From IMG/VR virus record IMGVR_UViG_3300020576_003846, positions 1 through 29,912 of that record: DNA of 29,912 nucleotides. One strand, written 5' to 3'. The stretch is from a virus. The translations under genes were made by a program, and so were the position numbers. Positions 181 to 29,912 of this stretch are shown one piece after another. Under the pieces are notes generated by a model, which made no database searches, was not told the origin of the DNA, and saw nothing but the letters and a program-made list of their open reading frames with translations. Numbering within the stretch: the stretch's first letter is position 1; every line of letters starts with the position of its first letter.

Positions 181-721
181 GTGCAGCGGTCGCCCGCGTC
201 ATCTGGAAATCGACAGCACCTATCCCCCGCTTGTTGCCGCCGGTAGCCGTGCCATCGGGAACATGAGCTAATATGGCGCCATTGCCTTTTGGCTTTAGGA
301 CAAAGTCAACATTCGTAGTACTTCCTTTGGCCTCGAGAGCGCTAACATTCGTTGTATTGTTCGGTGAACTTGTGTACGCATTATCATCGAAGTTTACCAA
401 ACCACCGCCACCTGCTGCGGGTTGCCATGCGCTGCCACCGCTGCCGTCAGCTGTGAGAACGTCACCACTACTTGCGCCCGTGCTAACAATATCCGCATCG
501 GTATGCGTGTGTGCTTTTTCGGCAGCCTCAACCCATGCGGCATCCTTGCGCCCGTAAATTTTGGTATCGCTTGGGGCTTCGCTGATACCACCTGCGTTGT
601 CTTTGCCAAACTCTGCGTAATGGTCACCGGTTACGTCCGGCTCCGTCAGGGTCATAGACCCCGTACCGTCACGCCGTGTGAACCGCAAACCTTCTTTAGT
701 TTCTTCTATTTTTATTTTCAT
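1..721 (-). CDS. Tail fibre protein, 5' part (about 240 codons). The gene leaves the window at position 1 and resumes in frame at 29875 if the ends are joined.
   Basis: ATG at 721..719 overlaps the TGA (720..718) of the upstream gene (ATGA junction). My translation is MKIKIEETKEGLRFTRRDGTGSMTLTEPDVTGDHYAEFGKDNAGGISEAPSDTKIYGRKDAAWVEAAEKAHTHTDADIVSTGASSGDVLTADGSGGSAWQPAAGGGGLVNFDD..., open to position 1. It is absent from the ORF track because there is no stop in the window. EAPxDxKxYxRK..W and HTHTxxDI are motifs I associate with phage tail-fibre N-termini. The 3' part consists of 15-aa GGxSNTASGxxSTI units resembling Hep_Hag/YadA-head repeats. Confidence 0.75.
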   Translation of the reverse strand, partial: MKIKIEETKEGLRFTRRDGTGSMTLTEPDVTGDHYAEFGKDNAGGISEAPSDTKIYGRKDAAWVEAAEKAHTHTDADIVSTGASSGDVLTADGSGGSAWQPAAGGGGLVNFDDNAYTSSPNNTTNVSALEAKGSTTNVDFVLKPKGNGAILAHVPDGTATGGNKRGIGAVDFQMTRATAAQVASGQYSTIGGGSSNAASGVRSTIGGGESNTASGQASTISGGSSNTASGQASTISGGSS

Positions 722-1197
722 TTACTTTTTCCTCCGAATAAAAAACCTATGACGAACGCCGCGCCGTGCGTTCCTATATCTGACCATATAGTGCGCTTGC
801 TGTAATTGTTTACAACACGAGCAACAGGGACATTCATGATTATCGTATCTGGATGATACTTAGCCCACAAGCTTAACACGCTTTCCGGATACCTGTATTC
901 AACATTCATTGTATCGTTATTTATCACAGTATCCAACGTAGCAACAAATGCCGGTGAGCAGTACAGCCCTTCAGGTGTTACTTGTTTTACAACGGTGTCA
1001 AACTTGACAACCGTGTCACGTCGGATAATATTTTTTGTTACCACGTCGGTAACGACTAACGGGTCACGCTGAACAACCTTTGTCACAACGACAGTATCAA
1101 CGATACGCTCAACGGTACGGATGCCGCCGCACCGGCTTAAGAGCCATAAGGATGCAACAACAATAATTCCGGCAATAATGTAATTTATAGTATTCAT
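718..1197 (-). CDS. Membrane-anchored protein, possible spanin (unimolecular-spanin-like topology)
   Basis: It lies immediately downstream of the endolysin, with an ATGA junction at 1197..1194. The N-terminus is hydrophobic (IIAGIIVVASLWLLSRCGG), the middle is V/T-rich and probably beta-rich, and the C-terminus is short and hydrophobic (GAAFVIGFLFGG). The Cys is not in a canonical lipobox (R at -1), so the call rests mainly on position. Confidence 0.3.
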   Translation of the reverse strand: MNTINYIIAGIIVVASLWLLSRCGGIRTVERIVDTVVVTKVVQRDPLVVTDVVTKNIIRRDTVVKFDTVVKQVTPEGLYCSPAFVATLDTVINNDTMNVEYRYPESVLSLWAKYHPDTIIMNVPVARVVNNYSKRTIWSDIGTHGAAFVIGFLFGGKSK

Positions 1198-1778
1198 ATG
1201 CCAACCAAGCCTAAGACCAACATACGACCCAACGGGTGCGTTAAATTTCGTGACCGATTGTACACGCCGCCGCCATCACGCTGCGAGCCTGCCGCACCGC
1301 TTGATGTATTAAACGCAACTGTCTTTACCCAACCCGCTCTGCCAATTTCGCGGATGCGCTCCACGTGACCACTTGCGCTCGTGGCATAGCCCCAACAAAG
1401 GAAGTCGCCACGTCGTGGCGTGTAGTGTACACGCTGCCCCTTGCGCTTGGCCCAATTCCAGAACGTCCGGACGTGGCCTGTGCGCATAATGCATATAGAT
1501 GTACAAATCTGCGCAAAGGCCCAATATTGCCCCGCCATGCAGTAAGGTGAACCCTTTGGGTTGCCAACGGCAGCATTATATTTATTTATGGCAACGCCAT
1601 CATTGCGCCCTGTACGCTCACGCACACCTACTTGGCTTTGCGCAACAGCTAAACTATTATACCAAAGTGCGCTGTCACAGCTAATAACAACCTTAGTTGC
1701 TGAATGCAATGAAGTAGCTGCCAGCATAGACAAGACCAACAAGCAGAGCCACAGCATTGAAAATACGTGCTTTCGCAT
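1194..1778 (-). CDS. Endolysin, CHAP / NlpC-P60-superfamily cysteine peptidase with an N-terminal signal or signal-anchor sequence
   Basis: TGRNDGVAINKY...GSPYCMAGQYW (catalytic Cys context), RGDFLCWGY...SGHVERI (His) and AFNTSSG fit the CHAP-like pattern seen in phage lysins. The N-terminus MLWLCLLVLSMLAATSL is hydrophobic. An RBS-like GAAGGGA lies 7-8 nt upstream of the ATG at 1778. Confidence 0.6.
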   Translation of the reverse strand: MRKHVFSMLWLCLLVLSMLAATSLHSATKVVISCDSALWYNSLAVAQSQVGVRERTGRNDGVAINKYNAAVGNPKGSPYCMAGQYWAFAQICTSICIMRTGHVRTFWNWAKRKGQRVHYTPRRGDFLCWGYATSASGHVERIREIGRAGWVKTVAFNTSSGAAGSQRDGGGVYNRSRNLTHPLGRMLVLGLVGI

Positions 1779-1992
1779 TTAGATTCCCTTCACCGTTGAA
1801 AGAGTCTGGACTGTAAACAAATAATACTATATGGCTAAGTATCACCGTTAGCATGACCGCAAAGGAGGCCTGCTTAAAGGTGTCGTATACCTCATTGCGC
1901 AACCCGCCAAATGCAATGAACGCAATAACGACAACAAGCAAAGTACCATGACGTGCGAAAAAGTTGCCAACAGCTGTTTTATCAATTTCCAT
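1693..1992 (-). CDS. Holin candidate with three predicted TM segments
   Basis: I prefer the internal ATG at 1992 (MEIDKTAV...) because GGGAG lies 5 nt upstream. Hydrophobic stretches are LLVVVIAFIAFGGL, FAVMLTVILSHIVLFVY and FNAVALLVGLVYAGSYFIAF. It sits directly upstream of, and overlaps, the endolysin gene. Confidence 0.5.
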   Translation of the reverse strand: MEIDKTAVGNFFARHGTLLVVVIAFIAFGGLRNEVYDTFKQASFAVMLTVILSHIVLFVYSPDSFNGEGNLNAKARIFNAVALLVGLVYAGSYFIAFSN

Positions 1993-2111
1993 ATTACTCC
2001 CAAATAAATAATTGTACTTTGTGCGAGGGCTGCCGTATGATACAGCCCCCAGCAAAGCACAATCTTAGTTGTGCTAAACGTACGCCACCACTTGCGTACA
2101 TGCTTCTACGA

Positions 2112-2579
2112 TTAACAAATCAGCTGCGCAACAACTCCCTTATCTGTTGCCGTGTACGGCCCGACATCGCCGCGACCAAGGAAGGCTACAGCTGCGCCGT
2201 AGGTTCCACTTGTGCCGTCACCTGCCGTTGCAACTAATTTAATGTATCGTTTTTTACCACGCAAGTCAACGAACCATTGGAAGATACCGTCGTCATCGGT
2301 GGCCGACGGCAAAGCAGACGTTCCACCTCCATCAACTTGCGGCAGCGAAGAAGTACCGTACACACTACCGGTAATATCGGTAGCCCCGCCCATGCCGCTA
2401 TCATCGGATTCAGTCAGCTTAAGTGCCGCCATTGCAATGTCGGTGGCACCCAAAGCAAAAGAAACAACGAGGTAATCATAACCGAAGGTATCAATTACCG
2501 TTGTCGTAAAACTTGCGTTGTCCTTTATCGCACCCGGTGGGCATGCGTTCACGACTTTTATGGATTGTAATTCAATCAT
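2112..2579 (-). CDS. Hypothetical virion protein downstream of the major capsid gene (possible head decoration or accessory protein)
   Basis: A 155-aa ORF with G/T/S/D-rich, beta-type composition. The call rests only on its position directly after the capsid gene. I recognised no motif. Confidence 0.3.
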   Translation of the reverse strand: MIELQSIKVVNACPPGAIKDNASFTTTVIDTFGYDYLVVSFALGATDIAMAALKLTESDDSGMGGATDITGSVYGTSSLPQVDGGGTSALPSATDDDGIFQWFVDLRGKKRYIKLVATAGDGTSGTYGAAVAFLGRGDVGPYTATDKGVVAQLIC

Positions 2580-9897: not shown

Positions 9898-10449
9898 ATG
9901 AAAAACAATGAAAGCAAGTTATCCGCCGAAGATATAGAACAGGGGCTAACAAATGGAGACAAGTACATACGTAGAGCGTTTGCCAAGCGCACCGACTACA
10001 CACCCACGCCGGAGCAAATCGAACGTGGGCTAACGGACACCAGCGAGTATGTGCGCACAGCGTTTGCCGATCGCAGGGACTACACACCCACGCCGGAGCA
10101 AATCGAACGTGGGCTAACGGACACCAGCGAGTATGTGCGCATTGCTTTTGCCTATCGTGGCGACTACACGCCGACGCCGGAGCAGATCGAACGTGGGCTA
10201 ACGGATGTTGAGTGGAACGTGCGTGTAGAGTTCGCGTGGCGCAGGGACTACACGCCGACGCCGGAGCAGATCGAACGTGGGCTAACGGATGAGAATGCTG
10301 ACGTGCGCCTTGCGTTTGCGGAGCGCACCGACTACACACCCACGCCGGAGCAGATAGAGCGTGGACTAACGGATGTTGAGTGGTTCGTTCGCACAGCGTT
10401 TGCGCTACACGCAAAGCGTGATGCAGAGCAAAGGAAAGAAGATAACTAA
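9898..10449 (+). CDS. Alpha-solenoid-type repeat protein, copy A (six 28-aa HEAT/LRV-like repeats)
   Basis: After MKNNESKLSA the protein is E-x-IE-x-GLT(D/N)-xxxx-(V/I)R-x-(A/E)FA-x-R-x-DYTPTP repeated with an exact 84-bp period. The D-xxxx-VR-x-A-x-A core resembles PBS-lyase/EZ HEAT and LRV repeats. Confidence 0.8.
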   Translation: MKNNESKLSAEDIEQGLTNGDKYIRRAFAKRTDYTPTPEQIERGLTDTSEYVRTAFADRRDYTPTPEQIERGLTDTSEYVRIAFAYRGDYTPTPEQIERGLTDVEWNVRVEFAWRRDYTPTPEQIERGLTDENADVRLAFAERTDYTPTPEQIERGLTDVEWFVRTAFALHAKRDAEQRKEDN

Positions 10450-10478
10450 CTTTATTTCACAAACTACAAGAAGCAATA

Positions 10479-10919
10479 ATGAAAAACAATGAAAGCAAGT
10501 TATCCGCCGAAGATATAGAACGTGGGCTAACAAATGGAGACAAGTACATACGTAGAGCGTTTGCCAAGCGCACCGACTACACGCCGACGCCGGAGCAAAT
10601 CGAACGTGGGCTAACGGATGTTGAGTGGTTCGTTCGCACAGCGTTTGCGGAGCGCACCGACTACACGCCGACGCCGGAGCAAATCGAACGTGGGCTAACG
10701 GATGTTGAGTGGTACGTTCGCACAGCGTTTGCGGGGCGCAGGGACTTCACGCCGACGCCGGAGCAAATAGAACGTGGGCTAACGGATGTTGAGTGGTACG
10801 TGCGTGTAGAGTTCGCGTGGCGCAGGGACTACACGCTGACGCCGGAGCAGATAGAGCGTGGACTAACGGATGTTGAGTGGTTCGTTCGCACAGCGTTTGC
10901 GCTATGCGCAAAAGCGTGA
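10479..10919 (+). CDS. Alpha-solenoid-type repeat protein, copy B (five 28-aa repeats), tandem paralogue of copy A
   Basis: It has the same 5' leader and first 10 codons as copy A and the same repeat architecture, with one unit fewer. An extra A (A4 at 10910..10913 versus A3 at 10413..10415) ends the frame 9 codons earlier than in copy A. Confidence 0.8.
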   Translation: MKNNESKLSAEDIERGLTNGDKYIRRAFAKRTDYTPTPEQIERGLTDVEWFVRTAFAERTDYTPTPEQIERGLTDVEWYVRTAFAGRRDFTPTPEQIERGLTDVEWYVRVEFAWRRDYTLTPEQIERGLTDVEWFVRTAFALCAKA

Positions 10920-24772: not shown

Positions 24773-25099
24773 TTACATTCGCCTTTTATCTCTATTTATA
24801 TTTATTGTCTTCATTGTAGGCTGATCCCATGCGGCAGCTCTGTGCAGGGCTACACGTCGTAGCCATGCGGAGGCAGGTAGAAGTTGGAAGTCATCAGGTG
24901 TCATGTGCCAAACTTTCGCAACCTCATAACTAACAATATAGTCCGCATACTCATCCGCCACCACCTCAACCCCTGTAACCCTTGTAGGTAGAGGCTCTCC
25001 GTATTCATCCATTGGTTTCAACGTTAGCACAGGGAAAGCCTCCATCACATCGTTACATTTATTTACTTCGCTGTAATAGCAAGGTGCGAAAGGATTCAA
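24773..25099 (-). CDS. Tail assembly chaperone, downstream (T-like) ORF
   Basis: It sits between the upstream chaperone ORF and the tape measure gene. It overlaps the upstream ORF by 41 nt in the +1 frame and has only a TTG as a possible own start. Confidence 0.45.
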   Translation of the reverse strand: MNPFAPCYYSEVNKCNDVMEAFPVLTLKPMDEYGEPLPTRVTGVEVVADEYADYIVSYEVAKVWHMTPDDFQLLPASAWLRRVALHRAAAWDQPTMKTININRDKRRM

Positions 25100-25634
25100 C
25101 GGCGCTCATGACTTCTTCGATATCCTGCTGATCCCAAAACAAATTAGTCCCGTCCTCAGCGTCGTCCAATGTGTCAAATTGCTCACGTTGAGCGTCGGTG
25201 AGTTTCGTCGTGTCAGCTATAACCCTAACAATAGTTATAGCATCAGCAAGTACCGCAAGGTCATTACGTGGCAACTCCAACACCGGGTTATTAACTGCCT
25301 TGATGATTGCGGGGAACGCGCTTTGCATCGTGCCGATAAAATTTTTATTTACCATATCGGCAACCTGTGCTTCCTCCATGTTAGGGCTGCTCTGCCGTAT
25401 GCGCGCTGCCTCTTCGGCAGCCCACTTAGGATTAGGCGTGCCATTGTGCAGCATGACGGTGAGCGCCTCCGGATGCGCTTCCAAAGCCTTAACGAAAGCC
25501 GTATTCGCCGATGCCGCAGAGATGGATTGCAAGGGTGATTCACAACGCCGCAACACAGAGCGTGTAACGGTTTGGCGCAGCGGAACATCGATAGTAATGT
25601 TGTCGTTAAAGGTAAGTTTAATTGTTTTTTTCAT
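25059..25634 (-). CDS. Tail assembly chaperone (G-like) by synteny
   Basis: A 191-aa acidic helical protein encoded between the major tail protein gene and the tape measure gene. Confidence 0.5.
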   Translation of the reverse strand: MKKTIKLTFNDNITIDVPLRQTVTRSVLRRCESPLQSISAASANTAFVKALEAHPEALTVMLHNGTPNPKWAAEEAARIRQSSPNMEEAQVADMVNKNFIGTMQSAFPAIIKAVNNPVLELPRNDLAVLADAITIVRVIADTTKLTDAQREQFDTLDDAEDGTNLFWDQQDIEEVMSAVESFRTLLLQRSK

Positions 25635-25656: not shown

Positions 25657-25676
25657 GGGCGGGTTGCAGCCCGCCC
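25657..25676 (-). terminator. GC-rich hairpin after the major tail protein gene (attenuator or partial terminator candidate)
   Basis: GGGCGGG (25657..25663), a 6-nt loop, then CCCGCCC (25670..25676). On the minus-strand transcript it is followed by UAUCUUUAA, a weak U tract. It lies between the tail-protein stop (25687) and the next ATG (25634). Confidence 0.35.
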
Positions 25677-25686
25677 ATAAAAAAAA

Positions 25687-26256
25687 TTACATGAAGGCTA
25701 CACGGCCATACGGGAATCCCGACGTAAGCGATAGGGGCGCCGGTGTGGTTGCCACAGCACTGAAGTATGACGAACCAATCGTTAACGAGCCACCGAGTTT
25801 AAACGAAGTGAAAGCCAATGAAACACGGTTCCATTTTTCCCCTTCTTGCTTGTACGACCCGCTTTGCCCATCAAGCCTAACGCCGGCAGCGAAGACCTTA
25901 CGAGCCTGCCCCACAGTACCACCAATCAAGCCACCACCTGCGATAATAAGTTGCGTTGCATTAGTGGATGTTGCAGCCTCTTCCTTTGTGCCATCTTCAA
26001 ACGTGACAGCCTCGCGCCCAGAGGACACAGCGTTATTCATGTAGGTTTCCAGATAGGTGTTAAGTGCCGCATCATCCTTAACGCCATCTACGGTAATCTT
26101 ATACTCATTCGATTCTTGTCGCTGCACGTCAACGCTAACGATTTCGCCGTTGTAATCATATATTGGCGATGCCCCAATTGTTGGCGACCCCCCGTCGGTC
26201 AGCGAGAACATTTGTGTTCTGTTCCCGCCACCAAGCACTCTATTCGTTGTTGCCAT
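25687..26256 (-). CDS. Major tail (tube) protein by synteny
   Basis: A 189-aa beta-type protein directly upstream of the chaperone pair and tape measure, followed by a stable hairpin. Confidence 0.6.
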   Translation of the reverse strand: MATTNRVLGGGNRTQMFSLTDGGSPTIGASPIYDYNGEIVSVDVQRQESNEYKITVDGVKDDAALNTYLETYMNNAVSSGREAVTFEDGTKEEAATSTNATQLIIAGGGLIGGTVGQARKVFAAGVRLDGQSGSYKQEGEKWNRVSLAFTSFKLGGSLTIGSSYFSAVATTPAPLSLTSGFPYGRVAFM

Positions 26257-27007
26257 TATTACGATCCTTGTCTAAAAGTGAAAGAAAGTTATTTGAATCC
26301 CTTGCAAGAAGTTGCGTAAAAAATCCAATATTGTCGGCATCAATATCAACGATTTTTACAAAGGTCTTTGCAAGTAGATATACATTCCGTTGCAATTTTG
26401 CGCGTAACCGCGCTGGGTCAACGGTGTACCCGCTGTGTAGTATCTGCACCGAGCAGTCGGCAGTGTTGTATCCTGCTCTTTGCACTGAATAAATTATTTG
26501 TTCATGGCAGTCACCCACATAGTATAATTCGCTAAGGTTGCGGTAAAGACGTACCGCGCTTTCATTGTAGCGCGTGACTGTGTCAGGCTCTTCAATATTG
26601 CGCATGCATCCGGCAATACCCACGAAGAGGCCCGCTATACCTTGCGGGTATTTATCTAAATTTTTATCAAACCAATCGCGTGAAGCATCGGCAAGCCTCT
26701 CGTCCATATCCATCGCCAGCACCCAGCTACGGGTCGCATATTGCCCCGCAAGGTTGCGAAGCTCCGCAAACGATTTGTATGGTTCGGTGTATTGCATCTC
26801 ATAGGCTGTATACACAACGTTATTATGTATCACCATTTCTTTGACCAACGCAGGGTCTGTACATGTTTCGCCGCGCTTGTTAAAAAGGATGACAACTTCG
26901 CACCCGTCCGGCACATTGGCAAGGAACTCATCAAGTAGGGGCATATCTTCATAACTTGCAATTGCAACTACTGATAAATTTATGTATGGTTTAGCTTCGG
27001 TTGCCAT
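26240..27007 (-). CDS. Glycosyltransferase family 2-like (GT-A fold) protein
   Basis: LSVVAIASYEDMPLLDEFL...CEVVILFN (first beta-alpha-beta), FAELRNLAGQYATRSWVLAMDMDERL (DxD-type motif) and VRLYRNLSELYYVGDCHEQI resemble soluble GT2 enzymes. I saw no TM segment. It overlaps the major tail gene by 17 nt. Confidence 0.6.
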   Translation of the reverse strand: MATEAKPYINLSVVAIASYEDMPLLDEFLANVPDGCEVVILFNKRGETCTDPALVKEMVIHNNVVYTAYEMQYTEPYKSFAELRNLAGQYATRSWVLAMDMDERLADASRDWFDKNLDKYPQGIAGLFVGIAGCMRNIEEPDTVTRYNESAVRLYRNLSELYYVGDCHEQIIYSVQRAGYNTADCSVQILHSGYTVDPARLRAKLQRNVYLLAKTFVKIVDIDADNIGFFTQLLARDSNNFLSLLDKDRNNGNNE

Positions 27008-27009
27008 AG

Positions 27010-27246
27010 TTACATGATTGTTGTTTTCGGTTCGTTACCAACGTACATGACAACGGTTGATTTGTTATCGTGGGTAAAAACACCCTCAACAAAACTAACA
27101 GGTGGCTTTAGCAGTTCAACCGCGCTAAGGCTTGTGACCCCTCGCGGCATAGTGTCTTTCCAGATATCCGTATCAACTAGTAGGTCAACATCACCGAGCC
27201 ACCTCTTTAATTGTTGCAGGTGATATATTGCTTCTGATAATTTCAT
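27010..27246 (-). CDS. Hypothetical protein
   Basis: A 78-aa ORF coupled by a 4-nt overlap to the upstream gene. No motif recognised. Confidence 0.4.
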   Translation of the reverse strand: MKLSEAIYHLQQLKRWLGDVDLLVDTDIWKDTMPRGVTSLSAVELLKPPVSFVEGVFTHDNKSTVVMYVGNEPKTTIM

Positions 27247-27707
27247 TTGTAATTAACAATATATTTAATTAGAAACTCATTCATGACTTTGTAGGTGCTG
27301 CCGCCATCATCAACAAAACCTGTATTACGCAGGGGCGCAATAGACGTCACGGCAACATCCGCCGTTACCGAGCTATCACCGACAGGTAACGATTGCGCCA
27401 AAGAGTACATGACGCGCGTTACGTCTTCGACAACACCTCCGTAAAGTTTTATAGCATCGCCCTTTGCGTGTATGCCCGTTGCAAATGAACAGAAAACACC
27501 AACGACCATTTGTTGCCTCTGCCAATCAACGAAGCCCCTTTCATTATCCGCATTAGAATACTGATTGTCAATAATATTCGTATAAACCAAAACACGGTTA
27601 GGGGCAGCCTTTGCCTTGTCGTTATACTGCTCGACAACGTCAAACCGCGAAACAGCAGTAAGGGCGGAATTAACTAACTCTACAATATAATGTTCTTTAT
27701 TTATCAT
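27243..27707 (-). CDS. Tail terminator/tail completion protein by synteny
   Basis: A 154-aa ORF between the HK97 gp10-like gene and the tail tube region, joined to its upstream neighbour by a 4-nt overlap. Confidence 0.4.
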   Translation of the reverse strand: MINKEHYIVELVNSALTAVSRFDVVEQYNDKAKAAPNRVLVYTNIIDNQYSNADNERGFVDWQRQQMVVGVFCSFATGIHAKGDAIKLYGGVVEDVTRVMYSLAQSLPVGDSSVTADVAVTSIAPLRNTGFVDDGGSTYKVMNEFLIKYIVNYK

Positions 27708-28183
27708 GCAATAGCCCCTAATCTACGCACCACCCTATCTGCCAAATCGTTTAGTTCTTCGTCCGCAAACTCTGCCATCGCAGGAGCCACGTACGGCCTT
27801 GCAGGCATCGTAAAACGTGCATTTGCGCGTCCCGTAGTGCCGCCGTACTCATGAATATTTGCGTAAGGAATAAGGTCTGTGTTAATTGCATAAGTTAGTA
27901 CTACTTCCTGCCCATTAGTCTTCACCTTAGATAGGTTTGCGCGGTTGCGCGCTGACGTGGCTGCATCGTACAAAGTTTTAGTATTGGTGTACAGTTGATT
28001 GGTTGCATTCCTTACGTACGGCCTATCATAACGCCCCGTGTCCATATTGAATTTAGGATGCTCACCAATGTTCATGTGGTCGGCAATGTAAACAAAAAGA
28101 GTTTCCAACATAAGTTGCAGCTCGCCGGTAACGATTGCAGGGAGCCTCTCTAATAGTGCGGCAGTATACTCACGTGGTGTCAT
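27704..28183 (-). CDS. HK97 gp10-family neck/tail-completion protein
   Basis: YANIHEYGGTTGRANARFTMPARPYVAPAM matches the vE.GT....A.PF..PA signature of the HK97 gp10 family. Confidence 0.7.
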   Translation of the reverse strand: MTPREYTAALLERLPAIVTGELQLMLETLFVYIADHMNIGEHPKFNMDTGRYDRPYVRNATNQLYTNTKTLYDAATSARNRANLSKVKTNGQEVVLTYAINTDLIPYANIHEYGGTTGRANARFTMPARPYVAPAMAEFADEELNDLADRVVRRLGAIA

Positions 28184-28185
28184 GG

Positions 28186-28761
28186 TTATGTTACCCTTTT
28201 ATATGGTTTCAACCTATGCCGCCAGCTGTGTTCCATGTCTTTATATTTAATGTTCATGCTTACGCCCCCCTCGTTGTTTACGACGGACTCAACACCAAGC
28301 CTTGCATCTGCTGCGTGGCCTGCCTCCAAAAACATGACCGCCACCATCTCGCCGCAAACGTGTTGCAGGTCAGCAGGCACAGGGAACAGCGAACCGTCGT
28401 AGCCAATGGACAACTCGGCAGTAACATAAACATATTTGCCGAAACCTTCTTCACGATACAACGTAAATAAGTTTTCATTGCGCGAAATTAAGCTAACATC
28501 GGTAAGCGTGACAGGGGAGCCTCCGGCAGTTTCGAGGGCCGTAACAGTGCCTAAGACAACGGGTACAGTAAATTGCAAATCGTAATATCGCGTAGCTTCG
28601 ACGAATGTAATTTCAACCGTAGAGCCGTCAACAGGCTGATTACAAATAGAGGCTATGCGCCCCGTAGCTACGGGAATCAATGCCGACAGTACCGCATCAT
28701 ACGCGGTCGTATCTATCTTTAGATTGTTGGCTTTGACCTGTGCGGTCGTGCAAAGTGCCAT
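28186..28761 (-). CDS. Head-tail connector (gp6-like) protein, longer than usual
   Basis: The N-terminus TAQVKANNLKIDTTAYDAVLSALIPVATGRIASICNQPV resembles gp6-like connector proteins. At 191 aa versus the usual ~100, it may carry a fused head-closure domain. Confidence 0.55.
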   Translation of the reverse strand: MALCTTAQVKANNLKIDTTAYDAVLSALIPVATGRIASICNQPVDGSTVEITFVEATRYYDLQFTVPVVLGTVTALETAGGSPVTLTDVSLISRNENLFTLYREEGFGKYVYVTAELSIGYDGSLFPVPADLQHVCGEMVAVMFLEAGHAADARLGVESVVNNEGGVSMNIKYKDMEHSWRHRLKPYKRVT

Positions 28762-28964
28762 TACTTTTTACGCCTGTAATGTTTGCAATAATTATAAATT
28801 TTTAGAAGCCACATTAACAACGCTGCCGAAGAGGCTAAGATAGCCACGATAGCAGCCACCTCTTGCAGGACTAGGGTGGTGTGTACATGGGCTGCTACGG
28901 CACTGCCAGCACCAAGGCCAGTTAACACGTGCGCAATGAGCGAATCGGTCGTATGCCCCGTCAC
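28761..28964 (-). CDS. Small two-TM membrane protein with a basic C-terminus (holin/antiholin-like or other membrane effector)
   Basis: At 67 aa, it has hydrophobic segments LIAHVLTGLGAGSAVAAHV and VAAIVAILASSAALLMWLL and the tail KHYRRKK. The GTG start overlaps the upstream stop (GTGA), and its TAA shares a base with the next ATG. Confidence 0.5.
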   Translation of the reverse strand: MTGHTTDSLIAHVLTGLGAGSAVAAHVHTTLVLQEVAAIVAILASSAALLMWLLKIYNYCKHYRRKK

Positions 28965-29264: not shown

Positions 29265-29912
29265 TTAGTAAACTAAATCAGTAAAGTGAATATCTGCAAG
29301 CCAACGCATGGACGTTGCGGCAAGGCCGGTACAGGTAATGATAAGGCCCGCCGCCGCTGATGTTGCGGCAGCCATACTAACAGCAATTGTTCCGGTAGTG
29401 CGGTGTACTACTGTGACATTGCTAACATCTAGAACACCTGTGTTAACTGTTGCGCCGTAGCGTAAGACACCATCAACTGCGAAGACTGCGGATTCGTTAG
29501 TTGCGGAATTACTACGGCACACGACGTAACCACGGAAAGGAATTGTACTTGTTAGCTGACACTCAAGGGTTGCCATAGCAAGGGGAGTGGCGTTAGCCGT
29601 CGTTGCAAATTTCTGCGACTGCCGCGACTGCGCTACCCCGGTGCCGCCACCGCCATCATAGCCGACGACGAAATCGGATGAATTCAAGGCTTTTCCATAC
29701 CCCCCCCCCACCGTCGCGTAACCCCGTGCGTTTGTGGTGTTACTTGCCCCGCCTATCACTGCTGAATACTGCCCGCTTGCGGTATTACTTGCCCCGCCTA
29801 TCACTGCTGAATACTGCCCGCTTGCGGTGTTGCTCGCCCCGCCGCCGATGGCTGCGTAATACGCGCTTGCGGTGTTGCTCGACCCGCCGCTAATGGTAGA
29901 GGCTTGCCCGCT
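29265..29912 (-). CDS. Tail fibre protein, 3' part (repeat region plus a C-terminal ~165-aa globular domain)
   Basis: The frame is open from the right edge: SGQASTISGGSSNTASAYYAAIGGGASNTASGQYSAVIGGASNTASGQYSAVIGGASNTTNARGYATVGGGYGKAL...DLVY, with the stop at 29265. The track's GTG start at 29804 is internal. The frame phase matches the 1..721 part when 1-37 is overlaid on 29876-29912, giving 1332 nt or 443 aa in total. Confidence 0.75.
   Translation of the reverse strand, partial: SGQASTISGGSSNTASAYYAAIGGGASNTASGQYSAVIGGASNTASGQYSAVIGGASNTTNARGYATVGGGYGKALNSSDFVVGYDGGGGTGVAQSRQSQKFATTANATPLAMATLECQLTSTIPFRGYVVCRSNSATNESAVFAVDGVLRYGATVNTGVLDVSNVTVVHRTTGTIAVSMAAATSAAAGLIITCTGLAATSMRWLADIHFTDLVY
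29741..29912. repeat. Tandem 45-bp coding repeats of the tail-fibre gene (three full units plus the 37-nt unit shared with the window start)
   Basis: 29741-29785 and 29786-29830 differ at one base. 29831-29875 is diverged. 29876-29912 is identical to 1-37. Confidence 0.9.

Follow-up and report, generated by a model that had tools for sequence, protein, structure and literature searches.

The window analysed here is the whole of a 29,912-nucleotide (nt) stretch of viral DNA, IMG/VR record IMGVR_UViG_3300020576_003846, and on its minus strand, within the neck/tail module, it was found to encode a soluble glycosyltransferase (GT hereafter) that is directly followed by an orphan protein of 189 amino acids (aa; MTP189 hereafter; Table 1). 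In the testable contigs of a broad clade of uncultivated phages, GT and MTP189 were shown to form a strict two-way gene pairing. Judged by profile and predicted structure, GT is a member of the GmaR/SunS-like clade of glycosyltransferase family 2 (GT2). With moderate confidence we propose that GT most likely O-glycosylates MTP189, a putative tail-tube subunit, before the tail is assembled.

The first-pass annotation of this DNA had described a 255-aa open reading frame (ORF) as encoding a soluble GT2-like enzyme with the GT-A fold. The ORF, which starts with ATG, was shown by its relatives and by a confident AlphaFold2 model to be a real gene far beyond chance: a HMMER search of 1.84 billion representative proteins gave 1967 relatives at E<1e-3, eight of these at E<1e-30. 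Two kinds of relatives were present in the HMMER set, proteins of about 220–310 aa with 25–39% identity to the query and proteins of 700–2300 aa in which the domain occurs two or three times, and the representative library contained dozens more single-domain relatives. The six long relatives that were inspected (including P0002 and P0007) were found to consist of GT2 domains interleaved with tetratricopeptide repeats (TPR) and are GmaR-like cellular proteins. TPR repeats were found in these cellular relatives and not in the phage proteins, and a cluster look-up of the multi-domain cellular relatives returned almost no names or taxa. Just one near-identical copy of GT, differing by N239T, was obtained from a word-indexed search of 5.8 billion proteins.

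As annotated before, GT contains no transmembrane segment: its maximum Kyte-Doolittle mean over 19 residues was 1.19, whereas the small membrane proteins encoded in other parts of the window reached 2.0–2.5. Also as annotated, the GT gene, stop codon included, overlaps the MTP189 ORF by 17 nt, and the Shine-Dalgarno sequence of the MTP189 gene is contained in the 3′ end of the GT coding sequence; an AAGGA/AGGA motif was found 5′ of the downstream gene in nearly all relatives. The GT gene had been placed between a tail-terminator-like gene and the major tail gene, and this held on the downstream side, where MTP189 is adjacent, but on the terminator side a 78-aa ORF (p78) intervenes.

A family alignment and profile were made from 38 short relatives of GT (mean column identity 29%). 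Residues P33, N85, W95, D100, D102, H168, H191, R207 and N208 are invariant in these 38 sequences, and E169, G193, Y194 and K204 are conserved in at least 90% of them. The DxD-like motif MDMDE noticed in the first-pass annotation is part of an AMDMDE motif at residues 98–103, and both of its DxD aspartates, D100 and D102, are among the invariant residues. Past the DxD, the motifs HEQ/E, HxGY and K-x2-R-N align residue for residue with those of GmaR and SunS. Used as a single sequence, GT matched GmaR at 3.8e-5, with DMD, HEQ, HSGY and K..RN aligned with the GmaR and SunS motifs. The HEQ motif would probably provide the third metal ligand or active-site residues.

Searched against the PDB, the family profile matched GmaR (4.5e-29, positions 14–219), SunS (1.4e-18, positions 14–223) and ThuS (1.2e-16, positions 17–237), with alignments that run over the entire catalytic domain and take in the acceptor-side motifs HEQ, HxGY and K..RN. 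The wall-polymer GT2 enzymes RmlT, TarS and TagF were matched over the N-terminal ~110 residues only (about 7–123), at 1e-3 to 5e-5. Pfam family PF00535 (Glycos_transf_2) was matched by 27 of the 38 relatives at E<=0.01 (best 6.1e-8); GT of the window itself did not reach the curated gathering threshold of this family, and its membership of the GT-A family therefore rests on the profile and the fold. The AlphaFold2 model computed from the family alignment is a single GT-A domain, Rossmann-like and alpha/beta/alpha with a mixed sheet at its centre (predicted local distance difference test score (pLDDT) 93, predicted template modelling (TM) score 0.89), in which the part past the catalytic domain consists of two helices only (198–219 and 224–250). 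Foldseek comparison of the model with the PDB was led by SunS (2e-10) and ThuS (9e-9), with SunS and ThuS matches ranging to 1.5e-8 and TM-scores of ~0.55, and all 50 listed matches were GT-A enzymes, among them SunS, ThuS, LARGE1, SpsA and TarS. The profile and structure searches, run as a check of the GT-A fold, did not assign a non-glycosyltransferase fold, and together with the PF00535 matches of the relatives they bore out the earlier description of GT as a soluble GT-A, GT2-like enzyme.

Since GT does not contain the TPR or helical domains of GmaR and SunS and scored 16 bits against a cut-off of 350 for NCBIfam TIGR04195 (the SunS equivalog), it was filed with the clade and not with a named family: on this evidence GT is a GmaR/SunS-like GT2 enzyme and a member of neither named family. 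A weak link of GT to phrog_13126 was also found. By the same comparisons GT is not a generic GT2. Its closest characterised relatives GmaR, SunS and ThuS all have proteins or peptides as acceptors, which in the case of SunS and ThuS are bacteriocin (glycocin) precursors. GmaR, through its N-terminal glycosyltransferase domain, puts N-acetylglucosamine (GlcNAc) on flagellin (PMC9638930).

Gene context was compared among loci fetched from public contigs (numbered L001–L066 and so on; about 55 distinct contigs in all). Eight different short relatives of GT (25–39% identity) were all found directly upstream of an ORF of 185–203 aa in a neck/tail module. A pattern scan of IMG/VR gave 24 further loci, several of them on contigs of 32–34 kb, which share the order adaptor, Neck1, p154, p78, GT, p189, p191, p108 and tape measure protein, with proteins 20–50% identical to those of the window. 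When hidden Markov models of both families were used, an MTP189-family ORF was found to start between -22 and +43 nt from the GT stop in 39 of 40 GT-bearing loci; in the 40th, the end of the contig falls within GT. The reverse search, made in IMG/VR through the MTP189 family, gave 29 loci, seven of which are on contigs that had not been found through GT, and all 28 loci with upstream sequence were shown to contain GT immediately upstream.

A scan of GTDB genomes with the GT pattern gave no relative. A GTDB scan with p155, the product of the gene after the capsid gene, gave 26 loci, and only L037, on a 25-kb contig of a metagenome-assembled genome (MAG) assigned to Bradyrhizobiaceae, carries GT and MTP189. 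The 25 other loci have the capsid and p155 head genes in common with the window, several of them with 10 kb of flank on the downstream side, and none carries GT or MTP189. Thus, taken together, the two-way pairing and the 25 head-sharing loci show that GT travels with the MTP189 family and not with the head. Besides, the pair is still present in L005 and L037, whose other neck proteins BLAST fails to detect. No match was found by megablast and tblastn of the region, GT and MTP189 against 50,697 GenBank phages.

The loci with the most distant relatives of GT (25% identity) were found to contain a Methyltransf_24 gene directly after the tail-protein gene (L005, 9272–9892; L006, 6499–7119; L007, 1456–2076). 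The tail gene is thus flanked by a glycosyltransferase and a methyltransferase in these loci, which echoes the sets of glycosyltransferases plus O-methyltransferase of cluster O mycobacteriophages.

MTP189 is putatively assigned as the tail-tube subunit by gene position: its gene is located past the neck/terminator genes and directly before two chaperone-position ORFs and the tape measure gene, an order that is kept in the relatives. The protein contains no Cys, which excludes S-glycosylation, and Ser/Thr was found conserved at positions 24, 30, 41, 132, 170, 171 and 176, which are candidate glycosylation sites from the alignment. An equivalent of the strong stem-loop found past the MTP189 stop codon is present 3′ of the MTP189 orthologue in 16 of 19 divergent lineages, although not conserved in sequence, with a mean minimum free energy of -24 kcal/mol compared to -12.4 for control windows. 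Such a hairpin is as expected past a very highly expressed structural gene, which suggests that GT and MTP189 form the end of a transcript unit.

Variation within the pair was observed in two comparisons. Among near-identical phages (the window compared to L001, 3514–4083, and L002, 1174–1743), MTP189 differs by three to six residues, and of the six positions that vary, five involve the gain, loss or exchange of a Ser or Thr (S24A, T26S, A29T, A64T, S157P); GT varies at one residue (N239T) in the same phages, and the change counts of the two proteins are too small for interpretation. In L011 (2769–3326) and L012 (2481–3092), identical GTs are followed by differing genes: the L012 product (203 aa) is like that of L011 for the first ~75 residues and then continues as an unrelated Gly-rich tail, a switch for which a frameshift, recombination or faulty assembly could be responsible.

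In the mechanism that we propose, GT would be an active, cytoplasmic, metal-dependent enzyme of the GT-A fold and GT2 type, transcribed late on one message with the MTP189 gene, and this message would end at the conserved hairpin. The donor would be an abundant nucleotide sugar of the host, most plausibly UDP-glucose (UDP-Glc) or UDP-GlcNAc, which are the donors used by the characterised relatives of GT. A single sugar, or a few, would be moved to Ser/Thr hydroxyls of MTP189 before or during its polymerisation round the tape measure, which would leave O-linked sugars on the surface of the finished tail; the phage may benefit through particle stability, masking or an assembly requirement. Pfam scans of this ~30-kb genome showed no sugar-synthesis, flippase, methyltransferase or further glycosyltransferase genes, and this, together with a GT that has no transmembrane segment, fits a single-step modification with host sugars. 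One enzyme without sugar-synthesis genes suggests a simple modification and not the complex glycans of mycobacteriophages.

The fold of GT, its catalytic motifs, clade, solubility, late-operon position and two-way pairing are established by the analysis. Glycosylation of the tail or another virion protein is what we infer from them, and it is strengthened by relatives that act on proteins and by an obligate MTP189 neighbour that is kept across deep divergence. A further possibility, which we put forward tentatively and hold to be doubtful, is that this tail-tube family is unable to function without its dedicated GT, in which case glycosylation would be an obligatory assembly step and not an optional coat and, if the host hints given below are right, would be the first self-encoded virion glycosylation in phages of Gram-negative bacteria. 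The unbroken two-way pairing suggests that the modification may be required rather than optional, and flagellins of some bacteria need glycosylation before the filament is assembled.

Several points weigh against glycosylation of MTP189 by GT. As a single sequence, GT gave no Pfam match at E<=0.1 and no PHROG match, and is by itself below every curated family threshold; because these scans gave nothing, the GT-A assignment depends on the profile and structure searches. GT is also without the TPR or large helical C-terminal domain by which GmaR and SunS are thought to recognise their substrates. The earlier labels 'tail terminator' for p154 and 'major tail protein' for MTP189 follow from the gene order only, and neither protein had a match in Pfam, PHROG, NCBIfam or the PDB, in the case of MTP189 also at lax Pfam and PHROG thresholds and with PDB searches by profiles of 7 and 16 sequences; besides, AlphaFold2 on a four-sequence MTP189 alignment gave a pLDDT of 26. 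The acceptor is taken from adjacency alone, and adjacency in a tightly packed late operon could reflect co-inheritance of the module. The 17-nt overlap of the two genes proves little about functional coupling, since catalytic amounts of an enzyme and hundreds of tube subunits need no translational coupling.

The adjacency of MTP189 might be operon packing, with GT acting on another or an additional virion protein such as the capsid, p155, the repeat-rich fibre or the tape measure. This is rather unlikely in our view, even though GT belongs to a long late operon in which all virion genes run in the same direction, mycobacteriophage enzymes modify both the capsid and the tail tube, and the acceptor was not directly identified by any result here. 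None of the 25 phages with a shared capsid and p155 but a different tail module carries GT; moreover, the pairing with MTP189 is two-way and is kept in L005 and L037, where BLAST loses the other neck proteins.

It is quite unlikely that GT modifies a target of the host, such as flagellin, pilin or a wall polymer, and by this blocks superinfection, prevents re-adsorption of progeny to lysing cells or disarms a defence. Alteration of the host surface is the classical role of phage glycosyltransferases, GmaR, the closest solved relative, glycosylates a filament protein of the host, and weaker N-terminal matches to the wall-polymer enzymes RmlT and TarS were found. The gene is however located in the middle of the late neck/tail operon and not in an early or lysogeny region, GT has neither a membrane anchor nor a flippase partner, and the ORFs scanned (several small ORFs were outside the scan) contained no integrase or repressor. 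Strict co-inheritance with one structural family would be unexpected for such an enzyme.

That GT is non-catalytic, serving as a tail assembly factor or chaperone for MTP189 or as a minor sugar-binding component of the virion, is highly improbable. Assembly chaperones typically show such obligate pairing with a structural gene, and GT of the window scores under the curated glycosyltransferase thresholds, but D100, D102, H168, H191, R207 and N208 were shown to be invariant in the 38 relatives, and invariance of the residues expected to bind metal and donor, amid 29% identity, points to selection for catalysis.

Scarcely credible is an action of GT on phage DNA, a small molecule or a glycocin-like peptide in place of a virion protein: DNA glucosylation is a common role of phage glycosyltransferases and SunS and ThuS, which glycosylate peptides, are encoded in prophages or gene clusters, but the SunS equivalog score is far below its cut-off, no Cys-rich precursor was recognised (p78 is without Cys and not present in all relatives), Pfam scans showed no ABC exporter or thiol-disulfide oxidoreductase, and the replication genes are on the opposite strand from GT. 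Known DNA glucosyltransferases are mostly not of the GT2 type and are expressed early with replication genes. The glycocin reading was rejected on p78, the exporter and the equivalog score, and fold, solubility and position spoke against the Gtr-type and DNA-modification readings, which were likewise rejected.

The host may be diderm (Gram-negative), on weak hints from gene content and relatives. The GC content of the genome is 44–50%, well below that of mycobacteria and the phages that infect them. The head genes have their relatives mostly in MAGs placed in Planctomycetota, Acidobacteriota and Proteobacteria, and the sole GTDB contig with the GT–MTP189 pair was binned to Bradyrhizobiaceae. 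This evidence is weak because only one of the 26 p155 loci from GTDB carries the pair and binning of phage contigs into MAGs is unreliable. None of the portal and primase tblastn matches reached 30% identity, and as they came from many host groups they gave no host call. A lysis-like cassette of three ORFs (718–2055, minus strand) is located between the head and neck genes and contains a CHAP-domain gene and a unimolecular-spanin-like gene (Table 1). A CHAP or Peptidase_M15 gene was found in the corresponding region of L003, L065 and L066, and L005 has an M15 gene upstream of the terminase gene. In addition, a 67-aa holin-like ORF (28761–28964, minus strand) with a hydrophobic core at ~27–57 and a basic C-terminus, KHYRRKK, was observed just upstream of the adaptor gene.

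The window probably represents an entire siphovirus-type genome, assembled as a circle of about 29.9 kb and broken within a fibre-like repeat gene. Its first 37 nt are identical to its last 37 nt and lie inside a 45-bp tandem repeat that is present at both ends (1–175 and 29732–29912). On either side of the circularised junction the minus strand was found to contain long open stretches of 246 and 254 aa in two frames, with Gly/Ser/Ala-rich 'GGSSNTASGQ' repeats. The minus strand contains, in order, the genes for terminase, portal, protease, HK97-type capsid, p155, the lysis-like ORFs and the repeat-rich end-spanning protein, and then those for the adaptor, Neck1/tail completion protein, p154, p78, GT, MTP189, the two chaperone-position ORFs, tape measure and distal tail. 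RecE/RecT-like, helicase and primase genes are located on the plus strand. No p78-sized ORF was found 5′ of GT in L005, L011 and L065, and in L066 a 55-aa ORF occupies the slot.

Table 1. Positions in the window and supporting observations for GT, MTP189 and the neighbouring features.
Feature	Position	Strand	Remarks
GT gene (255 aa, ATG start)	26240..27007	minus	ORF list, HMMER relatives, AlphaFold2, Foldseek, profile
DxD motif codons, D100-M101-D102 (predicted metal and nucleotide-sugar binding)	26702..26710	minus	Both Asp invariant; aligned with DAD of GmaR and SunS
HEQ motif codons, H168-E169-Q170	26498..26506	minus	H168 invariant, E169 nearly so; aligned with IHEQ (GmaR) and VHEE (SunS)
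AAGGA Shine-Dalgarno of the 189-aa gene, within the 3′ end of GT coding sequence	26265..26269	minus	Sequence
GT/MTP189 overlap, 17 nt; GT stop codon 26240-26242 inside the 189-aa ORF	26240..26256	minus	Sequence
MTP189, 189-aa orphan protein, putative major tail (tube) protein	25687..26256	minus	Gene order; constant GT pairing
GC-rich stem-loop, 7 G-C pairs and T-rich tail, 11 nt past MTP189 stop	25657..25676	minus	Terminator- or stabiliser-like
Two overlapping ORFs (191 aa, 108 aa), tail-assembly-chaperone position	24773..25634	minus	Conserved in relatives; no family match
Tape measure protein, 1208 aa	21144..24770	minus	phrog_1533 2.2e-41 and others; PF10145 on L001/L002 orthologues
78-aa ORF (p78), directly upstream of GT, no Cys	27010..27246	minus	Conserved in closer relatives only
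154-aa ORF (p154), tail-terminator-like by position only	27243..27707	minus	No Pfam, PHROG or PDB match (PDB by profile)
Tail completion/Neck1-like protein	27704..28183	minus	phrog_222 1.1e-4; PF05069 4.2e-4, below its cut-off
Head-tail adaptor	28186..28761	minus	phrog_442 4.9e-14
120-aa protein, three hydrophobic segments	1693-2055	minus	Lysis-like cassette
CHAP-domain protein, N-terminal signal-like segment	1194-1778	minus	Lysis-like cassette
159-aa protein, N-terminal hydrophobic segment ending LSRC and C-terminal membrane segment	718-1197	minus	Unimolecular-spanin-like

Further observations were made on neighbouring genes. The two chaperone-position ORFs, p191 and p108, overlap by 41 nt (25059–25099, minus strand), with p108 in the +1 frame relative to p191; no obvious -1 slippery heptamer was seen between them, and public gene calls start the second ORF from a downstream ATG (85 aa). 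The best-conserved protein is p155 (2112–2579, minus strand), encoded after the capsid gene, with 56–63% identity where the capsid shows ~37%. In MAG contigs (L037–L062), from phages with otherwise different tails, p155 adjoins HK97-type capsid genes; it matched no known family and may serve to decorate or cement the head. On the plus strand, an 84-bp unit is repeated in ~11 tandem copies (73% matches) at 9975–10901. These repeats encode 28-aa repeats across the early-strand ORFs 9898–10449 and 10479–10919, and gave spurious HEAT-repeat matches.

To our knowledge, a few mycobacteriophages are the only phages shown to glycosylate their own particles with enzymes that they encode, and in these the modification alters recognition of the virion by antibodies. 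GT–MTP189 phages probably sugar-coat their tails, and the finding suggests that virion glycosylation can be reached independently and far more simply, with one enzyme of a different glycosyltransferase lineage encoded within the tail module. The results support as new a single-enzyme device in the tail module that is obligately paired with an orphan tail-protein family and separate from the mycobacteriophage enzymes; the glycosylation that it would perform is the conditional part. The pair is widespread in uncultivated environmental phages and constitutes a minimal two-gene system of about 1.3 kb, enzyme plus proposed acceptor. It suggests a likely function for a family annotated just as 'glycosyltransferase 2-like', and it flags an orphan tail-protein family that is unrecognised by current databases or by structure prediction from shallow alignments. 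If the proposal is true, virion glycosylation would extend beyond actinophages, a compact tool for protein O-glycosylation would be available, and the question would arise whether some tail tubes need sugars for assembly or for escape from host sensing.

Compared to known systems, GmaR of Listeria monocytogenes (flagellin O-GlcNAc transferase, PDB 22ao) was found to be the best sequence relative with a solved structure. GT is like GmaR in its DxD, HEQ, HxGY and K..RN motifs and in being soluble and cytoplasmic. The substrate of GmaR is the subunit of a helical polymer and is modified before it assembles, which resembles the role proposed for GT. GmaR is however a multidomain cellular regulator of 637 aa with TPR, linker and anti-repressor domains (PMC9638930), whereas the phage GT is a bare catalytic domain plus a two-helix hairpin, encoded in a tail operon. 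The glycocin S-/O-glycosyltransferases SunS and ThuS (PDB 7msp, 7msn and 7msk) were the best structural matches, being GT-A enzymes with polypeptide acceptors, and SunS is itself prophage-borne (SPbeta). The C-terminal domains differ from that of GT (TM ~0.55), no glycocin precursor, exporter or oxidoreductase is encoded near GT, and the proposed acceptor MTP189 contains no Cys.

Two database proteins from uncultured Caudovirales, UniProt A0A6J5M9G7 and A0A6J5MCB8, were found by Foldseek in BFVD (TM 0.86 and 0.85, 38% and 27% identity, about 250 aa). They are true members of the family, the only ones found among database entries, with the automatic annotation 'Glycosyltransferase 2-like' only, and no function, context or acceptor was found described for them. 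No pairing of a glycosyltransferase with a tail-tube gene was found described in full-text searches of the literature. The Gtr system, by which temperate enterobacterial phages convert the O-antigen, shares with GT a phage-encoded GT2-type GT-A enzyme, GtrB, and a crAss-like 'GtrB' was a weak fold match to GT (5e-7). Gtr systems consist of a membrane-anchored GtrB acting on bactoprenol, a flippase (GtrA) and a serotype-specific transferase (GtrC) located beside an integrase, none of which is present here. In agreement with the first-pass annotation, no GtrA/GtrB-like match came from Pfam scans of the remaining ORFs, and no GtrA-like match was found among the small membrane ORFs of the window.

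The mycobacteriophages Che8, Corndog and Myrna, according to papers citing Freeman et al. (2023), glycosylate capsid and tail-tube subunits with their own enzymes. The system described here is like them in its proposed outcome, in that phage-encoded cytoplasmic glycosyltransferases decorate virion subunits including the tail tube. The window genome shares no close relative with actinophages. By hhalign, GT gave probabilities of 0.1–3.8% with Che8 gp108, gp109 and gp110 and Corndog gp37 and gp38 (Corndog gp36 and the Myrna enzyme were outside this comparison), and MTP189 gave 0.2% with Che8 gp11. The mycobacteriophage systems contain three glycosyltransferases, plus an O-methyltransferase in cluster O, whereas the window contains one GT and no methyltransferase. 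The earlier statement that glycosyltransferases of structural modules glycosylate virion proteins in some mycobacteriophages is a fair one, because the Corndog record contains glycosyltransferases gp36–38 just upstream of the major head gene. In the Che8 record, glycosyltransferases gp108–110 are encoded at the extreme right of the genome, and no gene separates the tail terminator gene from the major tail gene after it, whereas GT forms part of the tail module and is strictly paired with a single family of tail proteins.

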